The notes under the pieces were generated by a model. That model was not told the origin of the DNA, did not search any database, and was given only the letters and a program-made list of their open reading frames with translations. From NCBI GenBank assembly GCA_038065955.1, contig JBBTPY010000006.1:7626-71625 (forward strand): DNA of 64,000 nt, read 5' to 3'. Shown here piece after piece: positions 1,404 to 54,872 of the stretch. The stretch's first letter is position 1; the number at the start of each line of letters is the position of its first letter. The position numbers were made by a program, and so were the translations under genes. This stretch comes from Patescibacteria group bacterium. GTDB lineage: Bacteria > Patescibacteriota > Minisyncoccia > UBA6257 > UBA9933.

Positions 1404-3692
1404 ATGGCCGAAATTAAAACATTTCAAAATAATAAATCGGTTTTGAACGATTATTTCAAAACAGTCAAAAAACGCGACGGACGGTTGGCGTTTTTTGACA
1501 AATCTTTTATTACTCGCGCCATTATGAAAGCGCTCGCGGCGACCGGCGAAGGCGGCGAAGAAGACGCTATTCGTATTTCCGACCAAACACTCATCGTTTT
1601 AAAGAAAAAATATCCTCAAGATTATATTTTAGAGATTGAAGAAATTCAGGATATTGTAGAAGAATCTTTAATTTTATTGGATTACGCCAAAACCGTTAAA
1701 GCCTATATTCTTTATCGGCAGAAAAGAGCCGAAGTTCGGACCGAGCGCAAAGAAGTTCCGGAAAAAATTAAAAAATTAGCCGAGGAAAGCAAGAAATATT
1801 TTCGGAATTCTCTGGGCGAATTCATTTATTATCGCACTTATTCCCGCTGGATTGAAGATGAAAATCGGCGTGAAACTTGGATTGAAACGGTTGCTCGATA
1901 TATTGATTTTATGAAAGAGAATCTTGATGATAAATTGACGGATGCCGAATATCAAGAAATAAAAGAAGCGATTTTGAATCAAAAAGTGATGCCCTCAATG
2001 CGTTTGTTATGGGGCGCCGGCAAGGCGGCGAGAAAAAACAATGTTTGCGCCTATAATTGTTCATATATCGCTCCGGCAAAAATCAAAGATTTCGCCGAAA
2101 TTATGTTTCTTTTAATGAACGGCGCCGGCGTCGGATTTTCCGTCGAGCACCAGACGACTCAATTATTTCCCCAGATTAAAAAACAAACAGGAAAGTTATT
2201 GCCGGTTTATGTGATTGAAGACAGTAAGGAGGGATGGGGAGACGCTTTGACCGCGGGATTAACCGTTTGGTTTGAAGGGGAAGACATCAATTTTGATTTT
2301 TCAAAAATTAGGCCGGTGGGAAGTCATTTGAAAACAATGGGCGGTAAAGCTTCCGGTCCCGAGCCGTTGAAAAATCTTTTGGAATTTTCTCGCCGGAAAA
2401 TTTTGGCGCGCCAGGGAAGGCGTCTTCGGCCGATTGACGTTCACGATATTATTTGTAAAATCGGCGAAGTGGTGGTGATGGGCGGCGTCAGGAGAAGCGC
2501 TTTGATTTCTTTGTCCGATTTGGACGACGAAGCGATGAGAGCGGCAAAAATGGGGCAGTTTTATTTGACGGAACCTCAGCGAAGTTTGGCTAATAATTCC
2601 GTCGCTTATGATGAAAAACCGACGGCCGACCAGTTTTTGGAAGAATGGCTGGCTCTCATTAAAAGCAACGCCGGCGAGCGGGGAATTTTTAATAGGGGAG
2701 GATTAAAAATTCAAGTGCCGGAACGGCGCTGGAAAATTTTAGAAAAAGACGCGGCCACGGTTGGCGCCAATCCTTGCGGCGAAATTTATTTAAAATCAAA
2801 AGAATTTTGCAATTTAACGGAAGTCGTTGCCAGGGCGGAAGATACCGAAGAAATCCTTTTGGAAAAAATTCGTCTTGCCGTTATTTTGGGCACTTATCAG
2901 TCGACATTTACCGATTTCCGCTATCTTTCCGAAGAATGGAAGAAAAATTGCGAAGAAGAACGGCTTTTAGGAGTTTCAATCACCGGACAATGGGATTGTC
3001 AGACATTGAGAAATGCGGAAGCTTTTTATAAATTAAAAGAAAAAGCCGTTGAGATTAACAGAATTTACGCTAAAAGATTTAATATTAATCCTTCGGCCGC
3101 CATTACTTGCGTGAAGCCGTCGGGAACGGTATCTCAGTTAGTGGACGCTTCTTCTGGTATGCATCCGCGGCACAGCCGTTATTATATCAGACGCGTAAGA
3201 ATCGCGGCGACAGACAATTTATTTCAAATGCTTAAAGAACAGCGGGTTTCTTATTATCCCGAAGTCGGCCAAAGCATGGATTCGGCTTCAACTTATGTTC
3301 TGGAATTTCCGGTCAAGGCTCCGGCCGGTTCAATTTTTAGAAACGATATGAGCGCTATTGAACAGCTGGAATATTGGAAGTTGGTGAAAAATAATTATAC
3401 GGAGCATAATCCTTCAGTAACGATTTCGGTCGGCAAGGACGAATGGGTTAAAGTCGGAAATTGGGTTTACGAGAATTGGGATATTGTCGGAGGGTTGTCT
3501 TTTTTGCCGCGCGAAGACGAAGACCATGTTTATAAGCTCGCTCCTTATGAGGAAATAAGTGAAGAAAAATACAATGAAATGGTAACGGCTTTTCCGGAAA
3601 TCGATTTTTCCCAAATCATCGCTTATGAATGGGAAGATGAAACTCAGGGCGCCAAAGAACTGGCTTGCGTTTCGGGAGTTTGTGAAATTTAA
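1404..3692 (+). CDS. nrdJ: Class II (adenosylcobalamin-type) ribonucleotide reductase with N-terminal ATP-cone
   Basis: N-terminal ATP-cone-like segment ('KRDGRLAFFDKSFITRAIMKA'). Active-site thiyl-radical motif 'NPCGEI' is the class II form (class I has 'NxCxE'). Length 762 aa fits monomeric NrdJ/RTPR. Confidence 0.7.
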   Translation: MAEIKTFQNNKSVLNDYFKTVKKRDGRLAFFDKSFITRAIMKALAATGEGGEEDAIRISDQTLIVLKKKYPQDYILEIEEIQDIVEESLILLDYAKTVKAYILYRQKRAEVRTERKEVPEKIKKLAEESKKYFRNSLGEFIYYRTYSRWIEDENRRETWIETVARYIDFMKENLDDKLTDAEYQEIKEAILNQKVMPSMRLLWGAGKAARKNNVCAYNCSYIAPAKIKDFAEIMFLLMNGAGVGFSVEHQTTQLFPQIKKQTGKLLPVYVIEDSKEGWGDALTAGLTVWFEGEDINFDFSKIRPVGSHLKTMGGKASGPEPLKNLLEFSRRKILARQGRRLRPIDVHDIICKIGEVVVMGGVRRSALISLSDLDDEAMRAAKMGQFYLTEPQRSLANNSVAYDEKPTADQFLEEWLALIKSNAGERGIFNRGGLKIQVPERRWKILEKDAATVGANPCGEIYLKSKEFCNLTEVVARAEDTEEILLEKIRLAVILGTYQSTFTDFRYLSEEWKKNCEEERLLGVSITGQWDCQTLRNAEAFYKLKEKAVEINRIYAKRFNINPSAAITCVKPSGTVSQLVDASSGMHPRHSRYYIRRVRIAATDNLFQMLKEQRVSYYPEVGQSMDSASTYVLEFPVKAPAGSIFRNDMSAIEQLEYWKLVKNNYTEHNPSVTISVGKDEWVKVGNWVYENWDIVGGLSFLPREDEDHVYKLAPYEEISEEKYNEMVTAFPEIDFSQIIAYEWEDETQGAKELACVSGVCEI

Positions 3693-3700
3693 AAGTTTAT

Positions 3701-5413
3701 ATGCTTCAAATTCCTTCTCAAAAATTAAAAGATCTTTTAATAAGCGAGGGGTTGGTTGTTTCTTCTGATTTTGAAGCTTTATCGGAAGAAGCTCGGCGGT
3801 TGGGGCAAAATCTTGGCGAACTTTTAATTTCGCGCGGCATTGTTACATTGGATTATTTATATGGAGTCATCGCTAAATATTTTGGAGTTGAAAGAGTCGA
3901 TTTTATCAATCGGAAAATAAATGAAGAAGTTTTCGGCCGTCTTTCGGAGAATTTAGCCAGGCAAAAAAGAGTAATTATTTTTGACAAAGATTCAACGGGC
4001 GTTGTTTGCGCGGCCATGGAAGACCCGAGCGACCTTAACACGATTGAATTTCTGCAGAAACATTTAGGGGTAAGGATTAAACCGTTTTTGGCCGCTCCCG
4101 AAGACCTAAATAAAGGTTTTTCGTTTTATGGCCGTCATTTCGCCGAAGATTTTAAAAAAATTATTGAAGAAAACATCGCGGCTTCATTGCGCCAAAAAAT
4201 ATCGCAAACCGTTGAAGAAGCGGCGGCCGCGGTTCCCATCATCGCCATTATTGACGGATTTTTTTCTTATGCCGCTTCACTGAGGGCTTCGGATATTCAT
4301 ATAGAAATTTTTGAAGACGGAATTCTCGTCAGATTCAGGATAGACGGCATTTTGCATGAAATTATGAGAATTCCCAAAGAAGTGCATCCGGCTATCATCG
4401 CTCGGTTGAAAATATTGGCCGGTTTGAAAATTGACGAACATCAAAAGCCGCAGGACGGCCGTTTTCGTTATAAAATCGGTTCCGATTTGATTGATGTTCG
4501 GGTTTCAATAATTCCGACTTTTTACGGTGAAAAAATCGAAACGCGGCTTTTGCCGTCAACGCAAAAACCATTGTCTTTAAAAGATTTAGGGATAATGGAA
4601 AATAGCGAGCTTATTATCAGGGAAAACATTAAAAAATCTTATGGAATGATTTTAATTACCGGTCCGACCGGTTCGGGTAAAACCACTACGCTTTATTCAT
4701 TGCTTAATATTTTAAACAAACCGGAAGTAAATATTGTCACCGTTGAAGATCCGATTGAATATGATATGAAATATATCAATCAGGTTCAGATTAATCCTTT
4801 AGCCGGGATTACTTTTTCCGCCGGTCTCCGTTCTATTTTGCGCCAGGACCCTAATATTATTATGGTAGGCGAAATTCGCGATAATGAGACGGCGGAAATT
4901 TCGGTGCACGCGGCTTTAACCGGCCATCTCGTGATTTCAACTCTTCATACTAATGACGCGCCCACGGCAGTGCCTCGATTAATCGATATGAAAATCGCTC
5001 CTTTTTTGGCGGCCGCGGTTTTAAATATGATAATGGCTCAGCGGTTAGTAAGAAAAATTTGTCTCAATTGTATTGAGTCTTTTTCGCCGTCTTCCGATTT
5101 AATAGAATCAATAAAAAGACAATTAAAAGATTTGCATTTAATCGCCGATTTTAAGGCGCCTAAGATTTTATATAAGGGCAGGGGTTGTTCGAGTTGTAAT
5201 CATACCGGTTATAGCGGACGAATCGGCATTTATGAAATATTAAATATTGACGATGATATAAGAAAAGAAATTATTAATTCCGAGTTTTCTCTTAATAATT
5301 TGATTAAATTAGCCAAACAAAGAGGGATGATTACGATGTTTGAGGACGGCTTAAAAAAATCCGAATTAGGGATGACGACTATAGAGGAAGTATTAAGAGT
5401 TATTAGAGAATAA
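3701..5413 (+). CDS. pilB: Type IV pilus assembly ATPase PilB/GspE family
   Basis: Walker A 'ITGPTGSGKTTTLYS'; GspE N-domain; tetracysteine motif 'CLNC...CSSCNHTGYSGRIGIYE' typical of PilB/GspE. Confidence 0.9.
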   Translation: MLQIPSQKLKDLLISEGLVVSSDFEALSEEARRLGQNLGELLISRGIVTLDYLYGVIAKYFGVERVDFINRKINEEVFGRLSENLARQKRVIIFDKDSTGVVCAAMEDPSDLNTIEFLQKHLGVRIKPFLAAPEDLNKGFSFYGRHFAEDFKKIIEENIAASLRQKISQTVEEAAAAVPIIAIIDGFFSYAASLRASDIHIEIFEDGILVRFRIDGILHEIMRIPKEVHPAIIARLKILAGLKIDEHQKPQDGRFRYKIGSDLIDVRVSIIPTFYGEKIETRLLPSTQKPLSLKDLGIMENSELIIRENIKKSYGMILITGPTGSGKTTTLYSLLNILNKPEVNIVTVEDPIEYDMKYINQVQINPLAGITFSAGLRSILRQDPNIIMVGEIRDNETAEISVHAALTGHLVISTLHTNDAPTAVPRLIDMKIAPFLAAAVLNMIMAQRLVRKICLNCIESFSPSSDLIESIKRQLKDLHLIADFKAPKILYKGRGCSSCNHTGYSGRIGIYEILNIDDDIRKEIINSEFSLNNLIKLAKQRGMITMFEDGLKKSELGMTTIEEVLRVIRE

Positions 5414-10909: not shown

Positions 10910-13477
<2,568 letters not shown>

Positions 13478-25635: not shown

Positions 25636-26418
25636 ATGGCTACAAACCTATACAAAAAAATAAAGGAGTTGCGTGAGCAAAACAAATTTTCTCAAGAGTA
25701 TCTGGCGGAACAACTCAAGGTCTCCCGTCCTACTTATATGCAGGTTGAAAAGGGCGAGCGAGACATTACCGTACCGGAGGCAAGAAAGCTTGCTCTGGTT
25801 TTTGGCGTGAGTTTAGAAGATTTTCTCGGCGAAGAAGTTTCAGCGCTTCCCGATGTGGTTTTAAAGAAAGAAAAAGCCAAAGAGAAAGAAAGCGATATCC
25901 GCATTATTATGCCTCGAGCGGATGTAAAAAAGTTCAAAGAAGTGCTTCTCTATGTTTTAAGCAAGATTGGAGCAAAACCGAACATTGGAGAGACCGCCCT
26001 CTACAAACTTTTGTATTTTATTGACTTTGATTTCTATGAGAAGTTTGAAGAACAGCTTACCGGGGCGCGATACATAAAAAATCATTACGGCCCCACGCCG
26101 GTTGAATTCAAGAAGATCGTTGAAGGGATGGAGAAAAAAGGAGAGGTTGAGCGCGTTAAATCGAGTTACTTTCAGTACGACCAAAAAAAATATCTGCCGC
26201 GCAGAGAACCCGATCTAAAGAATCTCTCGGCGCAGGAAATTAAACACATTGACGAAGTTCTCGCCCGATTATCAGATAAGAACGCCAACGAGCTGTCCGC
26301 CTATTCGCATAGCGATGTGCCATGGAGAGTACACAAAGCTGGAGAGACGATCAGCTACGAAAGCGTATTTTACCGAGACGAGGATCACTCTGTAAGAAAT
26401 TACGACGATGAACTTTAG
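25636..26418 (+). CDS. HTH-XRE plus Panacea (DUF4065/SocA-like) domain antitoxin
   Basis: N-terminal XRE helix-turn-helix ('SQEYLAEQLKVSRPTYMQVEKGER'). C-terminal 'TALYKLLYFIDFDFYEKFEEQLTGARYIKNHYGPTP' matches the Panacea core. Confidence 0.6.
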   Translation: MATNLYKKIKELREQNKFSQEYLAEQLKVSRPTYMQVEKGERDITVPEARKLALVFGVSLEDFLGEEVSALPDVVLKKEKAKEKESDIRIIMPRADVKKFKEVLLYVLSKIGAKPNIGETALYKLLYFIDFDFYEKFEEQLTGARYIKNHYGPTPVEFKKIVEGMEKKGEVERVKSSYFQYDQKKYLPRREPDLKNLSAQEIKHIDEVLARLSDKNANELSAYSHSDVPWRVHKAGETISYESVFYRDEDHSVRNYDDEL

Positions 26419-26752
26419 TGAAACCAATGAATTTTCAAAAGATTTCAAGCGACTCTCAAAAAAATATAGATCCCTGCCGGATGATTTGCTTGAATTCAAA
26501 AAGATCATATCAGAAATTCCTCTCGGTAGTGGGAAGCACTTTGTAGTGCTTCACGAAAACGAGGAGGTGAAAATTCTAAAGGCGCGCCTATTCTGTAAAT
26601 ATCTCAGGGGCGCGTCTTTGCGTATTATCTACGCATATCGTGAGACTACGGCAACGATTGATTTCATCGAGATTTATTATAAGGGTGAGCAGGCAAACGA
26701 AACTAAGGGCCTGATTAATGACTTTCTGCGCGAGTTAAATAAAAATGGATAA
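26408..26752 (+). CDS. RelE/ParE-superfamily type II toxin
   Basis: Overlaps the antitoxin stop (ATGA). '...LRIIYAYRETTATIDFIEIYYKGEQ' resembles the RelE/HigB/ParE C-terminal region. Confidence 0.55.
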   Translation: MNFSETNEFSKDFKRLSKKYRSLPDDLLEFKKIISEIPLGSGKHFVVLHENEEVKILKARLFCKYLRGASLRIIYAYRETTATIDFIEIYYKGEQANETKGLINDFLRELNKNG

Positions 26753-32285: not shown

Positions 32286-32911
32286 AAATTACAAAAAATA
32301 AAATTCAAGTACTATTAGTCCATGGTGGAATGACCTTCAAAAATGAGAAGGATTATTTACACTACTTAAAAACTAAAAAAGTAACGACAACGAAAAAAGT
32401 TTCTTGGACAGGAGGTTATTTAGAGAAAAGTTTAGGCAAAAGGTTTGAAATAATCTCGCCAAGAATGCCTTTGCAGGATTTTGCGAAGTACAGAGATTGG
32501 AAGATATTTTTTGAGAGATACTTATCACTTATCAAAAATAAATACATTTTGATTGGTTCGTCTTTAGGCGGAGTTTTCCTTGCAAAATATCTTTCCGAAA
32601 ATAAACTTCGCAAAAAGGCATTGTCGGTATATTTGGTTTGTCCACCTTTTGACAATACATTGCCAGGTGAAGATTTGGTCGGTGGCTTCACGCTCGGCAA
32701 TAATCTGTCGTTGATTGAGAAGAACTGCAAAAATCTCCATTTGTTATTTTCAAACGATGACGATGTTGTGCCCGCCGCTCATGCCGATAAATACAAGCGA
32801 AAATTGAAAAATGCCCATGTTGTGATTTACAAGAGCAAAGGCGGGCATTTCAACATCGCCAAATTTCCTGAAATAGTTAAGATGATTTTTGCAGATATTA
32901 AAAGAAACTAG
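32282..32911 (+). CDS. Alpha/beta-fold serine hydrolase (YdeN/RBBP9-like)
   Basis: 'VLLVHGG' N-terminal strand; nucleophile elbow 'IGSSLGG'; late 'GGHFN' His region. Confidence 0.5.
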   Translation: MKITKNKIQVLLVHGGMTFKNEKDYLHYLKTKKVTTTKKVSWTGGYLEKSLGKRFEIISPRMPLQDFAKYRDWKIFFERYLSLIKNKYILIGSSLGGVFLAKYLSENKLRKKALSVYLVCPPFDNTLPGEDLVGGFTLGNNLSLIEKNCKNLHLLFSNDDDVVPAAHADKYKRKLKNAHVVIYKSKGGHFNIAKFPEIVKMIFADIKRN

Positions 32912-33010
32912 CCGCCAATTTTTTCAAAAAAGAAAGCCGAAGCCCGTGCGGATTCCTCCCCAAACCCCTCCTCCGCGCGGGCGAGTCCGAATTCCGCACC
33001 CCGCCACCAT
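32909..33010. repeat. Partial copy (R orientation) of the GC-rich intergenic repeat family; begins at the stop codon of the upstream gene
   Basis: 'tagccgccaatttt...gcggattcctccccaaacccctcctccgcgcgggcg' aligns with 36676-36760. Confidence 0.6.
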
Positions 33011-33340
33011 TCCCCCAGAAAAATGAGGCGGGGTGCGGTCAGAGTTTCTTCTCGAAAAAAGTTCGAGCAAATGCTAAAATAACACCACATTAGACGATTT
33101 CTTTCGCCCTCGCCCCTCGCTTCGCTCGGGGCTCGGGCTTCGGCGGGCAGAAAATAAAGGTAATTCCACGGCTTTTTGAAGTCAACAAAAAGCCGTTGGT
33201 CAAAAATTCGGCGGTTCGAGCCGATTTTTTTGAGAAAATTTTTCATCTCTGAAAAATTATCCTCCAAAGCGAAATTTTTGGCTTGGTTGGCTTCAATTAT
33301 CCAGTTCCGGACGAGTTCGAGCCAATGATTGCCTTTTCGC

Positions 33341-34591
33341 TCAAAATCGCTTTTTTTCCTCAATATCTTTTTTCCCCGACATCAGATCGTTTTTCTTTGG
33401 CTGAAACTCCGGCAGTTCTAAATCGCCTTCAAGGTAAGCGTCCATCAGGCGATTTATTTTTGTCTTAATTTTTTCTAATTCTGTTTTAAGATTTTGAGCG
33501 AAAAGGTCAGATGAGTGGCGGGATTCTTTATTCTCATTTTCCAGTTTTGTCAAAAACTTTTCCCGCCACTCATCGGGCAAAGAAACTTTTTGACAAAGAT
33601 TTTTCACTTGTTCAGTTAAAACTTCTTCCCGCAAAAAGCGATTTTCAGTACACGAAATAGTTTTGCTCTTGTGGGTGCAACGATAATAAATAAATTTCAA
33701 ACCACTTTTCTTGATGTGTCGCTCGGCGGTTATGGCATATCCACATACCCCACAAGTAGCAAAACCTAAAAACTGAAAATTCTTTGGTCCTCGCTTTTTG
33801 CGGGGCTTCCCATTCTGAACAAGTGCATTTTGAATTTGGTCAAAAAGTTTCTTTGCAATCATTGGCTTATGCGAACCTTGATGCACCTCGCCACGATATT
33901 GAAAGTGTCCGTAGTAAAAAGGATTTTTCAAAATATGTTCAATACTGGCGAGGTGCAAAGGTTTACCTGTTTTGCCAACCAAGCCAAGAGAAAACATTTT
34001 GCGTTGAATAGCCGTGAGTGTGTATTGCCCCGAAGCAAAAGCCCCTAACGCTTCTTTTACTTTGCCAAAAGTTTTTCTATCCGGCTCAATCGTCCGCAAA
34101 CGAGGTTCGTTGAAATATCCTAAAGGGGCTTTTGCGGAAAGTTCACCACGGCGTATTTTTTGGCGAATACCACGCAAAATGTTTTCTCTTAAATTGTCGG
34201 TGTAATACTTTGCTTGTCCGAAGGCGACACTCAACATAAATTTTCCTTGCGGTGTCGCCTCGAACCAGAAAGTAGGGAATTTTAGCGCAACAATCTTTTG
34301 CGTATCCACCAAATAAATTACTCTGCCACCGTCTATGCTATTTCTCGCTAAACGGTCTGGATTCCACGCTAAAATTCCCTGTGCAGTGCCTTTTTCAATT
34401 TCGCCAAGCATTTCGTTGAAAACTACTCTACCCGGCTCTTTGGCGGTCTTGCTCTCGTAAAATTCTTTTTCAACGAAAAGATTATTTTGCTTGGCGAATT
34501 CCCGAAGCTCCGTCAATTGTGCCTCAATACTTAAAACTTGGCGTTCTTCGTCTTCACTTGATTTTCTACAATAGATAAAATATTTGATCAT
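33341..34591 (-). CDS. Large serine recombinase (resolvase/invertase catalytic domain, recombinase domain, zinc ribbon)
   Basis: N-terminal 'YCRKSSEDEERQVLSIEAQ' contains the catalytic Ser. C-terminal 'CGVCGYAITAERHIKKSGLKFIYYRCTHK' is the zinc ribbon of large serine recombinases. Confidence 0.85.
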   Translation of the reverse strand: MIKYFIYCRKSSEDEERQVLSIEAQLTELREFAKQNNLFVEKEFYESKTAKEPGRVVFNEMLGEIEKGTAQGILAWNPDRLARNSIDGGRVIYLVDTQKIVALKFPTFWFEATPQGKFMLSVAFGQAKYYTDNLRENILRGIRQKIRRGELSAKAPLGYFNEPRLRTIEPDRKTFGKVKEALGAFASGQYTLTAIQRKMFSLGLVGKTGKPLHLASIEHILKNPFYYGHFQYRGEVHQGSHKPMIAKKLFDQIQNALVQNGKPRKKRGPKNFQFLGFATCGVCGYAITAERHIKKSGLKFIYYRCTHKSKTISCTENRFLREEVLTEQVKNLCQKVSLPDEWREKFLTKLENENKESRHSSDLFAQNLKTELEKIKTKINRLMDAYLEGDLELPEFQPKKNDLMSGKKDIEEKKRF

Positions 34592-34799
34592 AGCTTCGGG
34601 AATTAAATTGATAAAGGCATTGCACTTACACCGACAATTTCTAAAAATCTCTCCTCATCGGCTCTTGCGCCTTTGGCGCAATCCAAACTTTGTTTGGGAA
34701 CCGCCGACTTTCGGCGGGAATTCTTTTGGCGGAATTCAAAACCCCCTGGAATTTCTTGGCGGAAACCAATGCCGAGGGGCGAAGCCCCGAGGCAACTTC

Positions 34800-35020
34800 T
34801 TCGGCAAATCAAATTTGGTGGTGTTTGTTTAAAAAAGTCAGAACCCATTTTGCAGAAAATCCCAACGAATGAAACGGAAACAATGCGGACTCGGCAGGGC
34901 AAACTATTTTTCTGGGGTTTTGGATTTGCCCTGCCTCGGCTGATTTCCCGCCCGCAGGAGGGGTCTGGGGAGGAATGCGGGCGGGTTTCGGACTGGGGGT
35001 TTTCGGAAATTCGGCGGCTA
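34800..35020. repeat. Left copy (L orientation) of a ~200-bp inverted repeat flanking the XRE-NDT-HD cassette
   Basis: Reverse complement of 34837-35020 aligns nearly base-for-base with 36676-36870. Contains a perfect 10-bp hairpin stem cccgcccgca/tgcgggcggg. Confidence 0.8.
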
Positions 35021-35101
35021 TAAAATAATTGAATAATTCTCTCATATTTGTTATTATAATACTGTCAGTTAAAACAAGCAACAGTATTATGTTATCAATA
35101 T

Positions 35102-35305
35102 ATGGAAACTAATTTATTAGGACAGAAAATAAAGAAGCTACGGACAAAACTTGGTCTTTCTCAAGACGATTTTGCTCGCAAGGCGGATGTTCCCTACACA
35201 ACGCTTACAAAGGTCGAAACAGGCGTTATAAAAAAACCTTCGGTTTTTATGGTGAGCAAAATCGCTAAAGCGCTTGATGTTAATATTGAAGAATTAATAA
35301 AATAA
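35102..35305 (+). CDS. XRE-family helix-turn-helix transcriptional regulator
   Basis: 'LGLSQDDFARKADVPYTTLTKVETG' HTH_3 pattern; 67 aa. Confidence 0.6.
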   Translation: METNLLGQKIKKLRTKLGLSQDDFARKADVPYTTLTKVETGVIKKPSVFMVSKIAKALDVNIEELIK

Positions 35306-35310
35306 ATATT

Positions 35311-35697
35311 ATGAAAACAGTAGTACTTTGCGGCAGTCGCCGTTTCAAACCGGAAATGAGAGAATTTGGCAAAAAGCTAAAAGAGCTTGGTGTCGTTGTG
35401 TTTGAACCTTATTTACATTCCGGTCAAGACGAATGGGCGAAACTGTCGGACGACTATAAAAAATTTGTTGCTCTCGGACTAACCCATGATCATTTTTACA
35501 AAATACAAATAGCTGATGTGGTTTTTATTTTTAATAAAGACGGTTACACTGGGAATAGTACGACTTTGGAAATCGGTTATGCGGTAGCGACAGGAAAACC
35601 AATTTATGCGTTAACAAGTGACGAAGAATTATGCCGCCATGTTTTATTTAGAGAGATAATTTCTTCACCCAAAGAACTTGTTAAAAAATTGAAATAA
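35311..35697 (+). CDS. Nucleoside 2-deoxyribosyltransferase-like (Rcl/DNPH1-type Rossmann) protein
   Basis: 'VVLCGSRRF' N-terminal strand and 'GYTGNSTTLEIGYAVATGKPIYAL' match the NDT-like 'G.S.GT..E.G.A.A.GKP' signature. Confidence 0.45.
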   Translation: MKTVVLCGSRRFKPEMREFGKKLKELGVVVFEPYLHSGQDEWAKLSDDYKKFVALGLTHDHFYKIQIADVVFIFNKDGYTGNSTTLEIGYAVATGKPIYALTSDEELCRHVLFREIISSPKELVKKLK

Positions 35698-35700
35698 ATT

Positions 35701-36678
35701 ATGAAATACACAGATAGAGTATATGGAAATTTTGAAATTACAGAACCAGTAATTTTGGAATTGATAAATTCCTCAACTTTTCAAAGATTAAAGGAAATAG
35801 ATCAAGCTGGATATTTCGAACCACATTTCCCAGGCACTGCACATTCGCGTTTTGAACATTCAATCGGTGACTATTTACTTTTGAAAATGTATGAGGCACC
35901 AATTGAAGAACAAATTGCTGGTCTTATTCATGATGTTTCTCACTCGGCATTTTCTCATTGTATAGATTATGTCTTAGATGCTGGCTCTGAAAAAGAACAT
36001 AATCATCAAGATAATGTTTTTGATGATTATGTTAGAAAATCAGAAATACCAGAAATTCTTAAAAAATATAATCTCGATTTGGATTATATCCTTGACGATA
36101 AAAATTTTCCTCTTAAAGAAAACGATTTGCCAGATTTATGTTCAGATAGAATAGATTATTCATTAAGAACAGCTACTGTTTTTAAGGAAATAGAAAACGG
36201 AAAATTTTTTATTTATAATCTCACAGCAAAAGACGGAAGGTGGATTTTTAAAGATTTTGAAAGTGCAAAAAAATATGCAGACTTATTTTTGAAACTCAAC
36301 ACTAACTATTATGCGGGATTACCTTCCGCTGTTATGTTCCGAACGGTTGGAGATTATTTGCGATATGCACTTTCAAAAGAATATATTTCTGAAACCGATT
36401 TATACACAACTGATAAAATTGTTCTTTCAAAAATAGAATTTCATATCACCGACGACTCAAAATTGAAATTGCTTTTTGAAAGAATGAATAATAAAATCGG
36501 TTTCAGAAATGACCCAGTTAATTATGACGGAAAAGTATTTTGTAAATCACGAGTGGTTGATCCTCTTTGTTGGCATAATGGGGAAATAAAAAGAGTTTCA
36601 GAAATAGAGCCGAGTTGGTCTGATATAATTACGCGGGAATCAAAACCAAAAGAATATTTTTTAAAATTTGATAGATAG
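35701..36678 (+). CDS. HD-superfamily metal-dependent phosphohydrolase
   Basis: 'HSRFEHSIGDYLL' (His) and 'LIHDVSHSAFSH' (HD) motifs. Confidence 0.7.
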   Translation: MKYTDRVYGNFEITEPVILELINSSTFQRLKEIDQAGYFEPHFPGTAHSRFEHSIGDYLLLKMYEAPIEEQIAGLIHDVSHSAFSHCIDYVLDAGSEKEHNHQDNVFDDYVRKSEIPEILKKYNLDLDYILDDKNFPLKENDLPDLCSDRIDYSLRTATVFKEIENGKFFIYNLTAKDGRWIFKDFESAKKYADLFLKLNTNYYAGLPSAVMFRTVGDYLRYALSKEYISETDLYTTDKIVLSKIEFHITDDSKLKLLFERMNNKIGFRNDPVNYDGKVFCKSRVVDPLCWHNGEIKRVSEIEPSWSDIITRESKPKEYFLKFDR

Positions 36679-36995
36679 CCGCCGAATTTCCGAAAACCCC
36701 CAGTCCGAAACCCGCCCGCATTCCTCCCCAGACCCCTCCTGCGGGCGGGAAATCAGCCGAGGCAGGGCGAATCCATATCCCCAGTCAAATGTTTCGCCCT
36801 GCCGAGTCCGCATTAGTTTTCAGGGTTCTCCGCAAAATGGGTTCTAACTTTTTCCAACAAACACCAAAATCAAGCCCCTTGATTTTGGGATATTCTAAAC
36901 TTTGCGCGAAATCATTTTGAGGGAAACTAGCCCGCCTCCGCTTCGCTCCGGCGGAACGCTCGGGCATTTCGGCGAAAAATTTTTGCGACTGACAA
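36676..36995. repeat. Right copy (R orientation) of the inverted repeat; starts at the HD-gene stop codon and extends ~320 bp
   Basis: 'tagccgccgaatttccgaaaacccccagtccgaaacccgcccgcattcctccccagacccctcctgcgggcggg...' is the reverse complement of 34837-35020. Its distal part (36900-36995) is mirrored at 39042-39130. Confidence 0.8.
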
Positions 36996-37069
36996 AATAG
37001 GTATTACTTCTATCTTATCATAATATCTAAACTTTGGATATTGATTTCTTGGATATATCTTGTTAATAT

Positions 37070-37291
37070 ATGGTTAAGTCAATCCAAACAAAGGAATATG
37101 CCTATTTTATTGAGCGGTTACGGAAGGCTCGACTAAGGGCTGGTCTGACACAGGCGCAGGTCGCGAAAAAGATAGGTCGCCCCCAATCGCATATATCAAA
37201 TGTTGAATCTGGACAGCAAATGGTTGATGTAGTCGAGCTTCAACGATTTGCAAAGATATACGGAAAAGATATTAACTTTTTCCTAAAATGA
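37070..37291 (+). CDS. XRE-family HTH regulator
   Basis: 'AGLTQAQVAKKIGRPQSHISNVESGQ' HTH_3 pattern; 73 aa. Confidence 0.6.
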   Translation: MVKSIQTKEYAYFIERLRKARLRAGLTQAQVAKKIGRPQSHISNVESGQQMVDVVELQRFAKIYGKDINFFLK

Positions 37292-37620
37292 AATCTGCCA
37301 AACTTATTTCAGTTTTACTTTCCTTTGTGATTATTGTTAGTGTATTCGGTGTTTTTGCTGCTCCCAACACAACAGAGGCGTTTGTCCAAAAATATGAATA
37401 TTCAGAATATGATCCGCCTGGTGTTTTCTCTGGAGTTTGGCATGGACTTCTTGCGCCATACTCGCTTGTTGCCCGTTGGTTTATGGACGACGGAGCGATG
37501 TACGCAGTACCGAATACTGGTTGGTTTTATGACGCAGGATTTTTGATTGGTATAGTCGGCTCGATTCCTATTGGTTGGGCTGCTGCTATAATTTCCACAA
37601 TTGGACATATCTTGTCTTAA
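37288..37620 (+). CDS. Small membrane protein, unknown
   Basis: N-terminal TM or signal segment plus C-terminal hydrophobic segment; start overlaps the upstream stop. Confidence 0.3.
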   Translation: MKSAKLISVLLSFVIIVSVFGVFAAPNTTEAFVQKYEYSEYDPPGVFSGVWHGLLAPYSLVARWFMDDGAMYAVPNTGWFYDAGFLIGIVGSIPIGWAAAIISTIGHILS

Positions 37621-37632
37621 TTTCTAAAACTT

Positions 37633-38115
37633 ATGAAAATTAAACTTATAATTGGAATTCTCGTCGTGCTGGTTTTAATCTTTGGTTGGATAGCTTTTTC
37701 TCCAGCTACTCAAGAATCGTCAGTCAAGAAAGCACATTTTGCTACAAAATTATCAGCATCAGGAAGTATCACCTGTACTTATCCTCAAATACTGCATGCC
37801 AGCTATCAATCCGGAGAAATAACGCATGAATTACCGAAGCCGGAGACAAACCCTATCATAATGACTTTTAGCGATATTGATTCTGAAGTTGCAAAAGTTA
37901 AGTTCATTGATGCAACGCAATCCATTTCAGAAGTTCCACTCGTGAAAGTTATTGATACAGTAGAAAAGTTGATGTTCCTCGAAGGAAACGGTGAGCCCTA
38001 TATAACTGTTCATACAATTTATAAGGAAGATGGCGTTGCAACCTATGAAAAATCAATGTCGCTATTAGGTATCCCAGTAGGTACGGTGGGAATGGGTAGT
38101 TGTGTCGATTATTGA
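37633..38115 (+). CDS. Secreted hypothetical protein
   Basis: Signal-peptide-like N-terminus 'MKIKLIIGILVVLVLIFGWIAFS'; no recognisable motif. Confidence 0.3.
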   Translation: MKIKLIIGILVVLVLIFGWIAFSPATQESSVKKAHFATKLSASGSITCTYPQILHASYQSGEITHELPKPETNPIIMTFSDIDSEVAKVKFIDATQSISEVPLVKVIDTVEKLMFLEGNGEPYITVHTIYKEDGVATYEKSMSLLGIPVGTVGMGSCVDY

Positions 38116-38180
38116 AGGATAAACCCACTACGTAGCTTTAACTTGTTCTTCATCGTCATATTTAGTATTATATAAGTGAT

Positions 38181-38672
38181 ATGTCCTTACACCGAAAAAA
38201 GTACCAAAATGCTGTTTTGTACTTATGCCGGAAGCTAAAAGGCGAGGTACGCGGCAAGAAAAAATTAGCGAAATTGCTTTATTTCGCGGATTTTGATTTG
38301 TACGAAAAAAGTCAGAAATCAATAACTGGCGATGTTTACTGTGCGCTCCCAATGGGGCCGGTTCCGGCAGCTTTGGAAGAAATCACAGCTGAAATGACAA
38401 AAAAGAAAATGCTTGGCGTTGAGCACATCGAAGAACGAGAGGGATACAATCCTACTGAAGTATATAAGTGTCTCATCGAACCCGATCTTTCTGTTTTTGA
38501 TGACGAAGAAAAGAAAATGCTCGATCGGATTGTTGTCAAATATGGTCATCTCAATGGCAAACAATTAGAAGAATTATCTCACGCCGAAGCACCATACATC
38601 GGTACGGAGTTACGAAAAGAAATTCCATACGAACTGGCTTTTTATCGTGGTACAGATTTTAGTGAAATATGA
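38181..38672 (+). CDS. Panacea (DUF4065) domain antitoxin-like protein
   Basis: 'LAKLLYFADFDLYEKSQKSITGDVYCALPMGPVPAAL' matches the Panacea core and is paralogous to the 25636 C-terminal domain. Confidence 0.55.
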   Translation: MSLHRKKYQNAVLYLCRKLKGEVRGKKKLAKLLYFADFDLYEKSQKSITGDVYCALPMGPVPAALEEITAEMTKKKMLGVEHIEEREGYNPTEVYKCLIEPDLSVFDDEEKKMLDRIVVKYGHLNGKQLEELSHAEAPYIGTELRKEIPYELAFYRGTDFSEI

Positions 38673-39040
38673 TTCAGTTTCTGTACCACGACGGCATTCA
38701 GAAAGAAATCGCCGCCCTTGATGAGCGGCGATTTCGTACTATACGCAGTGGTCTGTCTGCATTTGAGAGACTGTGTGAGGTGCAATTTAATCCGACAAAT
38801 CCGCGACAAATCATTGCGCCGGCTAAAATACACCGCATTACGCAGAATGATATTTGGACACTCTGGAAAACTGAACTCGTTGTACCTAATTCGGGTTTAC
38901 GCCCAAATCAATGGCCGCGAATGTGGTTTGTGGTGAAGGGCGCAATTATTGCTTTTTTGTGCATATCCTCTCATGTTGATAATTACAACGATGAGGATAT
39001 GAATCGTTTAGCTTTGTCGCGGGTGTCGGATTTCTTCTGA
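38669..39040 (+). CDS. Putative toxin partner of the Panacea protein (family unrecognised)
   Basis: Start overlaps the Panacea stop (ATGA coupling); 123 aa; C-terminal hydrophobic stretch. Confidence 0.3.
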   Translation: MIQFLYHDGIQKEIAALDERRFRTIRSGLSAFERLCEVQFNPTNPRQIIAPAKIHRITQNDIWTLWKTELVVPNSGLRPNQWPRMWFVVKGAIIAFLCISSHVDNYNDEDMNRLALSRVSDFF

Positions 39041-39041
39041 A

Positions 39042-39130
39042 ATGTCGCAAAAATTTTTCACCGAAATGCCCGAGCGTTCTGCTAGAGCGAAGTGGAGGCG
39101 GTTTAGTTCCTTTTTTGAATTTTTTAGGAG
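39042..39130. repeat. Partial L-orientation copy of the intergenic repeat family
   Basis: 'gtcgcaaaaatttttcaccgaaatgcccgagcgttctgctagagcgaagtggaggcgg' is ~90% identical to the reverse complement of 36921-36990. Confidence 0.7.
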
Positions 39131-39292
39131 GCGCGCAAAAGAAAATTGTAAGGGAAAATTTCTGCGAGGTTGTCGCCTGAGCGAAGCGGGAGCGTACGAT
39201 TTAGTCTCGCTTCACCACGCGCTCCGCGCGCGGCACATCAGTCGGGGTTCTACTGGAAGTAAGTCCGAATTTTTTGGTATAATGATTACCAT

Positions 39293-39997
39293 ATGAATTT
39301 GCCAAATCATGTCGTTGTAATTCCCGATGGTAATAGGCGGTGGGCGAGAAAAAAGGGGTCGCTTTATTTTTTTGGCCATCGCGAAGGCGCGAAAACGACG
39401 GAAAAAATTTTAAAAGCCGCTTTAGAGATGAAAATTTATCATCTCACTTTTTGGGGCAGCAGTTTGGATAATATTATCAAGAGACCCAAAAAAGAGGTTG
39501 AATTTTTATTTGATATTTTTGAAAAGAATTTTAAAAAATTGGTTAAAAATAAAGATATTCATAAAAATGGCGTTAAAGTGAACGCGCTTGGCAGATGGAG
39601 AGAGTTATTTCCGGAACGCGTTAAAAAAGCCATTGAAGAGGCGATTGAAAAAACAAAAAATTATAAAAATTACCATCTGACGTTTTTAATGGCTTATAGC
39701 GGTATTGATGAGATGACAAACGCAATCCAAGAGATTGCTAAAATCAGAAATCAGAAATCAGAAATCAAAATCGACGGAGATTTAATTAAAGAAAATCTTT
39801 GGACAAAAGATTTGCCGCCTGTTGATTTGGTTATTCGCACCGGCGGCGAACCGCATTGGTCGGCGGGAATGATGATGTGGGACGTGGCCGACGCCCAATT
39901 ATATTTTACCGAAACGCTTTATCCCGATTTTTCCGTGGAGGAATTCAAAAAAGCCGTTGAAAAATATCAAGAAACGGAAAGAAGATTAGGCAAATAA
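39293..39997 (+). CDS. uppS: Undecaprenyl diphosphate synthase
   Basis: 'HVVVIPDGNRRWARKKG' and 'IRTGGEPHWSAGMMMWDVADAQLYFT' cis-prenyltransferase motifs. Confidence 0.9.
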   Translation: MNLPNHVVVIPDGNRRWARKKGSLYFFGHREGAKTTEKILKAALEMKIYHLTFWGSSLDNIIKRPKKEVEFLFDIFEKNFKKLVKNKDIHKNGVKVNALGRWRELFPERVKKAIEEAIEKTKNYKNYHLTFLMAYSGIDEMTNAIQEIAKIRNQKSEIKIDGDLIKENLWTKDLPPVDLVIRTGGEPHWSAGMMMWDVADAQLYFTETLYPDFSVEEFKKAVEKYQETERRLGK

Positions 39998-40759
39998 ATT
40001 TTTAATTTTAGCGTATCGCCATCGTCCGTATTGGTCGCGTTCAAATTCGCATAATTGATATTTTTCTTTTTGAACTAATTTTTTAACGGCGTTTTTTTGA
40101 AGAGAATCAAATTCCAGCCAAATTTCGCCGTTTGATTTCAGACGATTTTTCGTTTGCTTAAGAAATTTTTTTATGTAAAATAATCCGTCTTTTTTGCCGA
40201 AAATCGCCGATAAAGGTTCATATTTTAAAACAGAAACGGAGATTATCTTTTTATTTTTAAGCGGCACATAAGGCGGATTGGCTAAAATAAAATTATATTT
40301 TTTATTAATTCCAATATTCTCAAAAATATTGGAATGAATTATTTGATAACGAGACGAGGCAATTTTGTTTAATTTCAGGTTTATTTTTATTTGTTTGATA
40401 AATTCCGGATTTTTTTCAATAAAATTAACATTGGTATTTTTGAGATTTTTCAAAATCGCAATACCGATGCATCCGGAACCGGCGAAAGCGTCAAGGATTT
40501 TCAGCCGACTGCCACGAGTTTTCGCAAAAGCGATAAATTTTTCCGTCCAATATTCGGTTTCCGGTCTGGGAATAAAAGGTTTTTGCGAAAGGTCAATTTG
40601 GCAATTCAAAAACGGTTTCCAGCCGATGATATAATCAAGCGGTTCGCCGGCTTTGAGCCGTTTCAAGTCATTTAAAAATTCAGGATGCCATTTGCCGGCG
40701 TATTTATCTTTGATTAAAAATTTGATTTTTTCGCTAATTTTTTTAATGTTATTTTTCAT
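39986..40759 (-). CDS. prmC: Release-factor glutamine N5-methyltransferase PrmC/HemK
   Basis: 'FILANPPYVP' NPPY motif; SAM-binding 'ILDAFAGSGCIGIAI'. Confidence 0.8.
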   Translation of the reverse strand: MKNNIKKISEKIKFLIKDKYAGKWHPEFLNDLKRLKAGEPLDYIIGWKPFLNCQIDLSQKPFIPRPETEYWTEKFIAFAKTRGSRLKILDAFAGSGCIGIAILKNLKNTNVNFIEKNPEFIKQIKINLKLNKIASSRYQIIHSNIFENIGINKKYNFILANPPYVPLKNKKIISVSVLKYEPLSAIFGKKDGLFYIKKFLKQTKNRLKSNGEIWLEFDSLQKNAVKKLVQKEKYQLCEFERDQYGRWRYAKIKNLFA

Positions 40760-53333: not shown

Positions 53334-54872
53334 TTATTTCCAAATCAAGCGGTCTCCTTCGGAGATAATCGTATCGGATTCAATAAAAAGGCCACATTCT
53401 TCATTTGCCGAAATCTGGCTGATTTCGCGCTTATGCTGTCTTAAACTGACGACTTTTCCAAATCCCGCTTTTTCATTATTTTTTATAATTTCAAATCGGG
53501 AATTATTTTTGATGACGCCGGAGAGCGCGCGGCCGCCGACAAGCTGTTCTTTATTTTTCCGGCTGAAAATTTTTAAGACTTCAAATTCGCCAAGCGGCTT
53601 CGGTTTTTCCAATAACTTAACTTCATTTTCCACGGCTTCTATCAATTCGTATATGATATTTGAGATAATGATTTTAATTTCCTGAATTTTAGCCAAATTT
53701 TCGGCGATTTTATTGACTTTAGTTCCAAATCCGATAATGAGCGCTTTGCCGGCAATAGCCGTTTTAATGTCACCGTCGGTTATTTCTCCGATTGATTCGT
53801 TTAAGATGTTTATTTTTACGCCTTCATGTTTAATGTTTTTAATAATTTCCGATAAAGTTTCAAGCGAGCCGGAAGTATCGGCTTTGATAACGAGATTTAA
53901 TATTATTTTCGAATTTTCACGAACTAGTTTAACGGCAGAATTGGAAATTTGCGTGATTGGCGACAGATTCGCGTCAATTTGCGAACCAGTGAAAAATTCT
54001 TCTCCGATTTGAGGTAAAGTTTCAAATCCTAAAATTATTGCCGGGCTTGATGGCGAAAGTTCATCAATAGTTTTGCCTAAAAAATTCGTTAAATTTTTAA
54101 TTTTTCCGACGGCGCTTGCCGTGAAGATTTTTTCGCCGGTTTTCAAAATGCCGTTTTCAATAATAACGCTGGCGACAATTCCGCGATTAGGGTTGATTTT
54201 GGTTTCAATAATAATGCCGCTGGCCGGGACATTGGAATCGTAAGTTAAATTTTCTAATTCCGCGGCAAGCAAAATTAAGTCCAAAAGTTCGTTAATGCCT
54301 TGGCCGGTTTTAGCGGAAATCGCCTGCCAGGAAATATTGCCGCCAAATCCTTCAAGTAAGATGCCGTTTGCCGTTAAATCCTGTTTTGTTTTTTCAATAT
54401 CGGCGCTCGGTTTGTCTATTTTATTAATGGCGACAATAAACGGCGTTTTGGCCGCATTGAGAATTTCAATTGATTCTTTAGTTTGCGGTTTGACGCCATC
54501 GTCAGCCGCTACGACTAAAATTGCCAAATCGGACACTTTGGCGCCTCGGGCGCGCATTTTTGAAAAGGCCTCGTGGCCGGGCGTGTCTATGAAAGTGATT
54601 TTCCTGCCTCCGGCAGGCGCGGAACTACGCGGACTTAACGCAGACCCACGCGGAAATTCTGCGTTGTTCTGCGTCTGTTCTGCGTCTATCCGCGATTCAT
54701 GCGAAGCATGAATAATCTCGTAGGCGCCAATGGATTGGGTAATGCCGCCGGCTTCTTTGGCCACAACGCCGGTTTTGCGGATATAATCCAAAAGACTGGT
54801 TTTTCCGTGGTCAACATGTCCCATTATAACAACAATCGGAGGGCGCGGTAATAAAGTTTGAGTTTTTTTCAT
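53334..54872 (-). CDS. infB: Translation initiation factor IF-2 (short form) with a repeat-derived in-frame insertion in the G domain
   Basis: 'GHVDHGKTSLLDYIRKT' (G1), 'DTPGHEAF' (G3), 'NKIDK' (G4). ~30 extra residues lie between 'GAYEI' and 'KITFIDTPGH'. Confidence 0.9.
   Translation of the reverse strand: MKKTQTLLPRPPIVVIMGHVDHGKTSLLDYIRKTGVVAKEAGGITQSIGAYEIIHASHESRIDAEQTQNNAEFPRGSALSPRSSAPAGGRKITFIDTPGHEAFSKMRARGAKVSDLAILVVAADDGVKPQTKESIEILNAAKTPFIVAINKIDKPSADIEKTKQDLTANGILLEGFGGNISWQAISAKTGQGINELLDLILLAAELENLTYDSNVPASGIIIETKINPNRGIVASVIIENGILKTGEKIFTASAVGKIKNLTNFLGKTIDELSPSSPAIILGFETLPQIGEEFFTGSQIDANLSPITQISNSAVKLVRENSKIILNLVIKADTSGSLETLSEIIKNIKHEGVKINILNESIGEITDGDIKTAIAGKALIIGFGTKVNKIAENLAKIQEIKIIISNIIYELIEAVENEVKLLEKPKPLGEFEVLKIFSRKNKEQLVGGRALSGVIKNNSRFEIIKNNEKAGFGKVVSLRQHKREISQISANEECGLFIESDTIISEGDRLIWK

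Follow-up and report, generated by a model that had tools for sequence, protein, structure and literature searches.

A stand-alone Panacea gene and its RelE/ParE-fold partner form a conserved, mobile and putatively toxin–antitoxin module in Patescibacteria

A stretch of 64,000 nucleotides (nt) from a Patescibacteria group bacterium (hereafter the window; NCBI GenBank assembly GCA_038065955.1, contig JBBTPY010000006.1, positions 7,626 to 71,625, forward strand) carries two genes for proteins with a Panacea domain. The second of these, panA, overlaps the start of an open reading frame (ORF) for a protein of 123 amino acids (aa), ORF B, which an earlier note on this DNA could not classify and proposed to be a toxin of a possibly new family. 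The locus raises the question of what kind of protein ORF B is and whether it forms, together with the Panacea protein, a functional unit. We give a probability of roughly 0.6 to the reading that panA and ORF B are a self-contained type II toxin–antitoxin (TA) cassette of the PanAT kind, in which a ribosome-dependent RNase toxin would be neutralized directly by PanA. The features on which the argument turns are as follows (positions are those of the window):

38135..38180, + strand: conserved region of ~45 nt 5′ of panA with a -10-like AT-rich box, likely a promoter
38181..38672, + strand: panA, a 163-aa stand-alone Panacea-domain protein without a helix-turn-helix (HTH), putative antitoxin
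38669..39040, + strand: ORF B (panT), a 123-aa protein of predicted RelE/ParE fold, putative toxin and probably an mRNA interferase

The Panacea domain of PanA is readily recognized, with the Pfam model SocA_Panacea (PF13274) matching residues 29–139 (E=1.6e-22, 81 bits, cut-off 25.7) and with 32% identity (E=2e-22, 157 aa aligned) to the Panacea portion of the HTH-Panacea protein encoded at 25636-26418. The Pfam scan returned no HTH family and no domain besides Panacea, in agreement with the earlier description of a gene that shares the Panacea core of the one at 25636 and lacks its HTH. Such PanA proteins without an HTH are the commoner state, and the antitoxin-first gene order is likewise the commoner one among PanAT loci (943 vs. 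325) (Kurata et al. 2022; PMC8832971). The coupling of the two genes was also read correctly: the junction (...gaaatATGAttc...) is a 4-nt ATGA stop/start overlap at 38669-38672. In aligned upstream sequences, a conserved stretch (CTTGTTC...TAGTATTATATA) contains an AT-rich, -10-like box and ends ~10 nt before the ATG. A scan for sigma-70 consensus promoters did not flag this box, and an Rfam scan of 33500-40500 gave no match; judged from its sequence and position, the box is likely a compact promoter whose transcript would have a very short leader or none.

The pairing of the two genes is conserved well beyond the window. In 42 of 42 species-level loci (one genome per GTDB species, with six-frame ORF calling and phmmer), a PanA homolog lies directly 5′ of the ORF B homolog and ends at or just inside its start; the junction reads ATGA in 34 loci, GTGA in one and TAATG in two, such that 37 of the 42 keep a stop/start overlap. 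On the metagenome contigs that encode four further homologs of ORF B, each is directly preceded by a 163-aa Panacea gene with a 4-nt overlap, amid wholly different flanks (LepA/DivIC and a glycosyltransferase; Lon/M48 peptidase and a Kazal protein; HD/adenylosuccinate lyase and a VTT protein; SecY/LepA), and even three remote relatives of ORF B (24–33% identity) each sit immediately 3′ of a Panacea gene for 161–172 aa. The search for the same pair elsewhere that the earlier note had recommended accordingly finds the partner kept beside its Panacea neighbor, with at least four unrelated flanks. The identities of PanA and ORF B homologs to the window copies correlate (r=0.92), and both genes are under strong purifying selection, with a ratio of nonsynonymous to synonymous substitution rates (omega) of 0.03–0.09 for panA and ORF B alike at a synonymous divergence (dS) of 0.55–2.4 (Nei-Gojobori).

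The boundaries of the conserved unit are equally sharp. When window positions 34500-40000 were compared by BLASTN with more than 50 loci from other genomes, similarity (65–90% identity) was confined to ~38135-39046, a shared segment of ~910 bp that runs from ~45 nt before the panA ATG (left edge at 38135-38166) to the ORF B stop. None of 58 other loci has, within 3–4 kb of the pair, a homolog of any of the window neighbors that were checked, namely the XRE protein (37070), the membrane protein (37288), the secreted protein (37633), a second XRE protein (35102), the deoxyribosyltransferase-like protein (35311), the HD protein (35701) and the serine recombinase (33341-34591). In most genomes the pair stands among housekeeping genes, not in defense islands. 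The PanA-ORF B pair moves between Patescibacteria genomes, members of the candidate phyla radiation (CPR), as a unit of ~0.9 kb.

Two observations on the surroundings of the pair in other genomes may be recorded here. In 7 of the 42 species loci (L020, L030, L031, L034, L040, L050 and L052), panA is preceded by a tRNA gene 60–380 nt away and in the same orientation (Gly-ccc, Arg-tct twice, Leu-cag, Arg-gcg, Trp-cca and Thr-cgt), a frequency that by a rough estimate from tRNA density is well above chance and hints at insertion beside tRNA genes. In L001 (375-2693), the LepA (EF4) gene adjoining the pair has a PDDEXK_3 nuclease domain inside its GTPase domain, which looks like an intein- or homing-endonuclease-type insertion.

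The distribution of ORF B is narrow. A search of 5.8 billion clustered proteins yielded 473 homologs at 90% clustering, nearly all of them from CPR bacteria; the best 120 of the 473 are 78–98% identical to ORF B, ~122 aa long, without a Pfam domain and annotated only as hypothetical proteins, and they come from Wolfe-, Lipton-, Vogel-, Davies-, Sung-, Nomura-, Lloydbacteria and similar CPR lineages. Searched exhaustively with a hidden Markov model, 1.84 billion 50%-cluster representatives included just 82 of the family, and the scan with one genome per GTDB species found ORF B in 42 of 185,579 species genomes, nearly all labelled Patescibacteria. Searches of IMG/VR viral contigs, GenBank phages and PLSDB plasmids returned no copy. 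This patchy distribution, together with flanks that are specific to each lineage, points to a mobile accessory module and away from a core function.

What, then, is ORF B? The earlier note had found no motif that it could place, and database searches give the same answer: none of Pfam, NCBIfam, PADLOC, PHROGs and the PDB sequences (phmmer) yields a significant match, neither PanA nor ORF B is matched by a PADLOC model, and neither ORF B nor its family members match the MqsR toxin model. When 47 family members were scanned against Pfam, the best matches were weak and came from one member each (YafQ_toxin, 0.033; ParE-like_toxin, 0.074).

Structure prediction is more informative. An AlphaFold 2 (AF2) model built from a shallow alignment of 78–98%-identical homologs reached a predicted local distance difference test score (pLDDT) of 56 and was discarded; with a 47-sequence alignment spanning 23–87% identity, the pLDDT rose to 95.5 and the predicted template modeling score (pTM) was 0.89, a gain that we ascribe to the diversity of the alignment. 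The model has the topology b-a-a-b-b-b-b-a (E3-6, H8-19, H25-39, E54-59, E64-69, E84-90, E93-100, H108-122; E, strand; H, helix). In a Foldseek search of the PDB with this model, 17 of the top 20 matches belong to the RelE/ParE superfamily, with target-normalized template modeling (TM) scores of 0.60–0.66 and probabilities of up to 0.99. The Helicobacter pylori protein HP0892 and its L66S mutant (E=0.012-0.025, probability 0.98–0.99, target-normalized TM 0.64–0.66) are among them, as is Escherichia coli YafQ (probability 0.84–0.95), and further matches include Mycobacterium tuberculosis HigB1, Staphylococcus aureus YoeB, HP0894, Streptococcus pneumoniae HigB, the Cami1 RelE-like domain, Vibrio cholerae HigB2 and an Agrobacterium YoeB/ParE toxin. 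A Foldseek search of viral structures gave no informative named match. The predicted structure of ORF B has the characteristic RelE/ParE fold and is not a new fold.

The conserved residues of ORF B (H7, H55-R56, K67, R78, Q81, P83, R84, H102 and Y106) can be read against this model. Lys67 is placed on strand 3, Arg84 on strand 4, and His102 and Tyr106 after the last strand; within the family of ORF B, H102 is kept in 46 of 47 sequences and P83 in 47 of 47, and Q81 and H7 are also retained. The catalytic residues of the known toxins are K52/K54, R61, R81 and Y87 in RelE, H83 and Y84 in YoeB, and H87 and F91 in YafQ. The layout of the ORF B residues in the model appears to be that of RelE, YoeB and YafQ, and H102-x3-Y106 would parallel the H87-x3-F91 of YafQ (sequence confirmed against 4ml2). 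Given this resemblance, ribosome-dependent mRNA cleavage is the likeliest function of ORF B.

A distant homolog of ORF B was found in the window itself, as the partner of its first Panacea gene:

25636..26418, + strand: HTH-Panacea antitoxin of the first pair, 260 aa (HTH_3 E=4.8e-15, PF13274 E=7.7e-19)
26408..26752, + strand: 114-aa toxin of the first pair, of a sister family of ORF B; unannotated and CPR-restricted

Aligned by hhalign, the ORF B family matches the 114-aa protein with a probability of 92.8% as a single sequence and of 95.2% family against family (E=2.8e-8, full length). The family of the 114-aa protein is CPR-restricted and comprises 381 homologs (90%-identity clusters), none of which has a Pfam domain; in the loci checked, its members are always preceded by a gene for a 260-aa HTH-Panacea protein. 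The 114-aa protein also has a weak match to the phage family phrog_5869 (E=2.8e-5). The kinship of the two partners and the family-wide linkage of each to Panacea genes imply that the two PanAT modules of the window are paralogous, with toxins from sister families. The two pairs share their architecture, a strict Panacea linkage and the K/R/R/Y positions (over the 63 sequences of both toxin families, K67 in 54, R/K78 in 56, R/K84 in 63 and Y106 in 59). They differ in that the first pair has an XRE HTH at the N terminus of its antitoxin, no 14-residue loop and no equivalent of His102 in its toxin, and a gene overlap of 11 nt rather than 4 nt. The proposal of a possibly new toxin family accordingly holds for the sequence, since ORF B does belong to an unannotated family; it does not hold further, as the predicted fold is RelE/ParE, the first Panacea gene's partner is a remote homolog, and RelE-like PanT toxins are already tabulated in the PanAT dataset (PMC8832971).

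We hypothesize that ORF B, as a divergent member of the RelE/ParE superfamily, would act as a ribosome-dependent mRNA endonuclease, with Lys67, Arg78 and Arg84 on the sheet and His102 and Tyr106 just past the last strand as the putative catalytic set, and that the stand-alone Panacea protein would bind ORF B and so neutralize it directly. Both proteins would be made from one short-leader transcript and be translationally coupled through the ATGA, and the cassette is transferred as a unit among CPR genomes and retained by strong purifying selection. There is precedent for the antitoxin side of this scheme: the tested PanA-PanT pairs form stable complexes with diverse toxins (five of five by pull-down) and are classed as type II (Kurata et al. 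2022; PMC8832971), and stand-alone Panacea proteins neutralize directly, through the Panacea core itself (PMC10440598).

Several results weigh against this scheme, most of them on the toxin side. The Foldseek E-values are marginal (0.012–0.4, none ≤0.001), and the query-normalized TM is just ~0.5, the latter owing to a further hairpin strand, a loop of 14 residues and a long helix at the C terminus of ORF B. Profile searches of the PDB retrieved no RelE/ParE chain with the 47- and 63-sequence alignments, and with these and a 26-sequence alignment they gave chance matches only (e.g., FtsY and PspGI); hhalign of the ORF B family with E. coli YafQ stands at 0.3%, which is no signal, and sequence profiles did not connect ORF B to any RelE/ParE family of Pfam. 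Marginal E-values and the missing profile support lead us to file ORF B under the RelE/ParE fold and not as a member of an existing sequence family. The sister family is without His102, and the mapping of the catalytic residues follows secondary structure rather than structural superposition. On the side of the antitoxin, panA is split in two ORFs next to an intact ORF B in one contig (L014, 106 kb, long-read style, 3473-4004); because an identical ORF B protein adjoins an intact PanA in L015, the split may be an assembly or indel error, and it is either such an error or a natural antitoxin frameshift.

The rival readings are taken here in order of declining probability, and the first is already unlikely. 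It differs in purpose and is compatible with direct neutralization: the pair would serve mainly in abortive infection or phage defense, with the Panacea protein sensing an infection cue and releasing a RelE-fold effector. The authors of NetFlax lean towards Panacea as a sensor and connect TA networks with defense against phages (PMC10440598). PanA does match the phage families phrog_1281 (2e-16) and phrog_10390 in PHROGs, the window pair lies in an accessory segment beside cassettes whose relatives bear restriction-modification (R-M) and defense-like cargo, and the unusual conservation of both proteins can also be counted in its favor. It fits poorly with the location of most copies among housekeeping genes, with the absence of the pair from viral, phage and plasmid collections and with the lack of a PADLOC model for either protein.

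We think it improbable that ORF B is a ParE-type poison of DNA gyrase and not an mRNA cleaver, although this is the main alternative as regards function and would leave PanA a direct antitoxin. RelE and ParE are of one fold and fold alone does not tell function (PMC10440598), a ParE domain is among those of PanT toxins (PMC8832971), Foldseek retrieved 6n90, a "YoeB/ParE toxin" (target-normalized TM 0.66), and one family member has the weak ParE-like_toxin match given above. The structural evidence points the other way, in that the best matches are the RNases HP0892, YafQ, HigB and YoeB and that bona fide ParE2 chains match ORF B poorly (probability 0.11–0.14, TM 0.26–0.36). Lys, Arg, Arg, His and Tyr, which are nearly invariant, moreover make up the set that RelE-type RNases use, and ParE proteins are not known to have such a conserved set.

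A more speculative reading, to which we assign little weight, is that ORF B and the sister family at 26408 form an unrecognized, CPR-specific branch of RelE-fold proteins with an active-site layout of its own (His102/Tyr106, the GLRxxQxPR loop and the C-terminal helix), co-opted for a regulated function, and are not ordinary selfish addiction modules. The co-option would follow from constraint at the level of housekeeping genes (omega ~0.03–0.09, 80–98% identity over many CPR lineages). If true, that function would relate to the episymbiotic way of life or to the unusual ribosome of the CPR, for example as a controlled shut-down of translation or with a target other than A-site mRNA.

It is doubtful indeed that ORF B is no toxin at all and instead a RelE-fold partner without catalytic activity, for instance a regulator or a factor that binds ribosomes, domesticated together with PanA. 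TA toxins are typically fast-evolving, and an omega of 0.03–0.09 with 80–98% aa identity over many CPR lineages is housekeeping-like and atypical of them; ten predicted TA pairs from NetFlax were also non-toxic in E. coli (PMC10440598). The patchy distribution and the flanks that change with each lineage speak against domestication, and the conserved polar residues of ORF B resemble an active site. Highly improbable, finally, is an indirect, type VI neutralization as in SocAB, with the Panacea protein as a proteolytic adaptor handing ORF B to ClpXP: Panacea/DUF4065 is the SocA domain (Pfam "Antitoxin SocA-like"), and PanA has a weak match to the NCBIfam model SocA_antitoxin (NF047745, E=1.2e-4), but at 21.8 bits against an equivalog cut-off of 190 this is below SocA-level similarity, which makes adaptor action unlikely, the toxin is RelE-fold in prediction and not SocB-like, and five of five PanAT pairs formed stable complexes in pull-down (PMC8832971).

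If the pair is read as a direct PanAT cassette, how does it compare with known systems? Kurata et al. (2022, PNAS) list ParE and PemK among the annotated PanT domains and 41 PanT clusters without a domain (PMC8832971). In their Dataset S1, the PanT clusters T14 and T28, which accompany "noNTD" PanA with the antitoxin first, return HigB-2, YoeB/ParE, RelE and YafQ in HHpred (PMC8832971), and RelE/ParE is among the commonest TA folds in NetFlax (PMC10440598); the combination of a RelE-fold toxin with a Panacea antitoxin is therefore of a known kind. The likeness to T14 and T28 covers a Panacea gene first and a gene for a small toxin of (predicted) RelE/ParE fold next, a tight bicistron, a noNTD PanA and a patchy, mobile distribution, and the T14 and T28 toxins are likewise predictions (PMC8832971). 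Unlike them, the ORF B family has no detectable sequence kinship to annotated toxin families and is confined to CPR bacteria, which are not found in the available part of Dataset S1, a listing of RefSeq (GCF) assemblies. What is new here is the ORF B sequence family, its restriction to the CPR and its unusual conservation.

Among known structures, YafQ (DinJ-YafQ; 4ml0, 4q2u), HP0892 and HP0894 are closest to the ORF B model, with probabilities of 0.93–0.99, target-normalized TM of 0.63–0.66 and a common b-a-a-b-sheet core, at a sequence identity of 12–16% and, for YafQ, with no relationship by hhalign. In YafQ as in the ORF B model a His directly follows the last strand, with an aromatic residue four positions on (H87/F91 and H102/Y106). 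ORF B is, however, 30 residues longer, with a further b-hairpin strand (54–59), a loop of 14 residues (G-L-R-x-x-Q-x-P) and, at the C terminus, a helix of 15 residues, and its antitoxin is a Panacea protein, whereas that of YafQ is the ribbon-helix-helix protein DinJ. The HigB toxins (M. tuberculosis HigB1, 7awk/7nbu; S. pneumoniae, 6af3; V. cholerae HigB2, 8a0x), which are ribosome-dependent mRNases, are similar in size (110–125 aa), have extra elements as well and give the top query-normalized TM (0.55–0.59), but show no sequence similarity. HigB genes usually precede that of their HTH antitoxin HigA, whereas the antitoxin gene of ORF B comes first and encodes no HTH. The commonest annotated PanT domain, MqsR-like with a ZBD-HTH-Panacea antitoxin, is not that of this pair, in which PanA is Panacea only and ORF B has no MqsR match.

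In the window, the pair forms the right-hand end of an accessory segment bracketed by an inverted repeat, whose arms and first gene are:

36925..36989, - strand: left arm of a 65-nt inverted repeat (repeat search, 89% complementary), context outside the conserved module
39044..39108, + strand: right arm, starting 4 nt past the ORF B stop, context outside the conserved module
37070-37291: XRE-type HTH protein, 73 aa (HTH_3 E=5e-13), ATGA-coupled to the gene at 37288

The segment between the arms (37070-38115, then panA and ORF B) encodes the XRE protein, a 110-aa predicted membrane protein (37288) and a 160-aa protein with an N-terminal signal- or transmembrane-like segment (37633), the last two without a family match in Pfam or NCBIfam. 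The inverted repeat was seen in no other locus compared. The separate XRE gene that the earlier note had pointed to upstream of the pair is real, but it is coupled to 37288 and does not accompany the pair in other genomes; because just the ~910 bp at 38135-39046 are common between genomes, it stands outside the module, and a role as its regulator is ruled out. The window matches contigs from Hainich groundwater at >99% identity, including one of 695 kb, and a G+C-rich direct repeat of 42 nt (GCGCRGAAC...ACGCGGA...) occurs in three distant copies (11615-11656, 11796-11837 and 54617-54658).

To the left of this segment is a cassette of another kind, bounded by inverted repeats of ~200 nt (34819-35021 and 36675-36866) and preceded by a recombinase gene:

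33341-34591, - strand: large serine recombinase, 416 aa (phrog_95 "integrase")

The cassette (35102-36678) encodes an XRE protein (67 aa, 35102), a nucleoside 2-deoxyribosyltransferase-like protein (128 aa, 35311; PF05014 E=3.7e-8) and a 325-aa protein with a weak HD match (35701), and it could be a nucleotide-targeting accessory or defense operon. Between 32937 and 36866 there are three copies of a hairpin (32952, +; 34956, -; 36720, +), each with an invariant 21-nt loop (ATTCCTCCCCAGACCCCTCCT) and a 9-bp stem; both of the ~200-nt repeats contain a hairpin. An exact scan of metagenomes for this loop found at least 120 stretches (loci L063-L182), and the layout of the conserved CPR element is an outward-transcribed large serine recombinase, a ~200-nt repeat with two hairpins, an XRE gene followed by variable cargo, and the repeat inverted. 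Among the matches listed, 37 of 38 two-copy contigs have the copies inverted in the same sense, 1.6–7.8 kb apart and often exactly at the contig ends, ~30 loci have a recombinase homolog just outside one hairpin (as in the window) and ~60 have an XRE gene first inside; the cargo of these matches is diverse and R-M- or defense-like (XRE, DNA methylases, ResIII, SWI2/SNF2, HNH, GmrSD, AbiEii-like ATPases). The stem covaries, with double changes at 9 of 9 pairs and 94% of cells paired, values that 0 of 500 shuffles reach. Homologs of the XRE protein at 37070 adjoin hairpin repeats in L081, L137 and L169.

The left flank of the cassette, a serine-hydrolase gene and the first hairpin, is common to the window (32292-33089) and two contigs from related genomes, L098 (544-1341) and L174 (610-1340), at 89–90% identity, after which the sequences diverge. 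Both L098 and L174 have another XRE-led cassette there, without a recombinase; in L098 it lies between two hairpins and encodes a split PPDK_N/PEP-utilizer protein. This suggests that the site is a hot spot for cassettes, and the hairpin/serine-recombinase element could be a system of cassette exchange or inversion. The element has no Rfam match (33500-40500), and a literature search found no description of it. The PanAT pair is ruled out as regular cargo, since no homolog of PanA or ORF B is among the 120 matches listed, and just one PanAT locus (L022) has a hairpin nearby. The hairpin/recombinase system beside the pair is widespread and may be more interesting than the pair.

The panA-ORF B pair leaves the current picture of TA systems unchanged. 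It adds two related, unannotated families of putative toxins (~470 and ~380 clusters at 90% identity) to the catalog of Panacea partners, allows ~850 clusters of "hypothetical proteins" to be annotated as RelE/ParE-fold putative toxins, and extends PanAT to the Patescibacteria, in which TA and defense biology is almost undescribed. As a compact, self-contained and extremely conserved module, it would also be a handy test case for how a stand-alone Panacea protein neutralizes a RelE-fold toxin.

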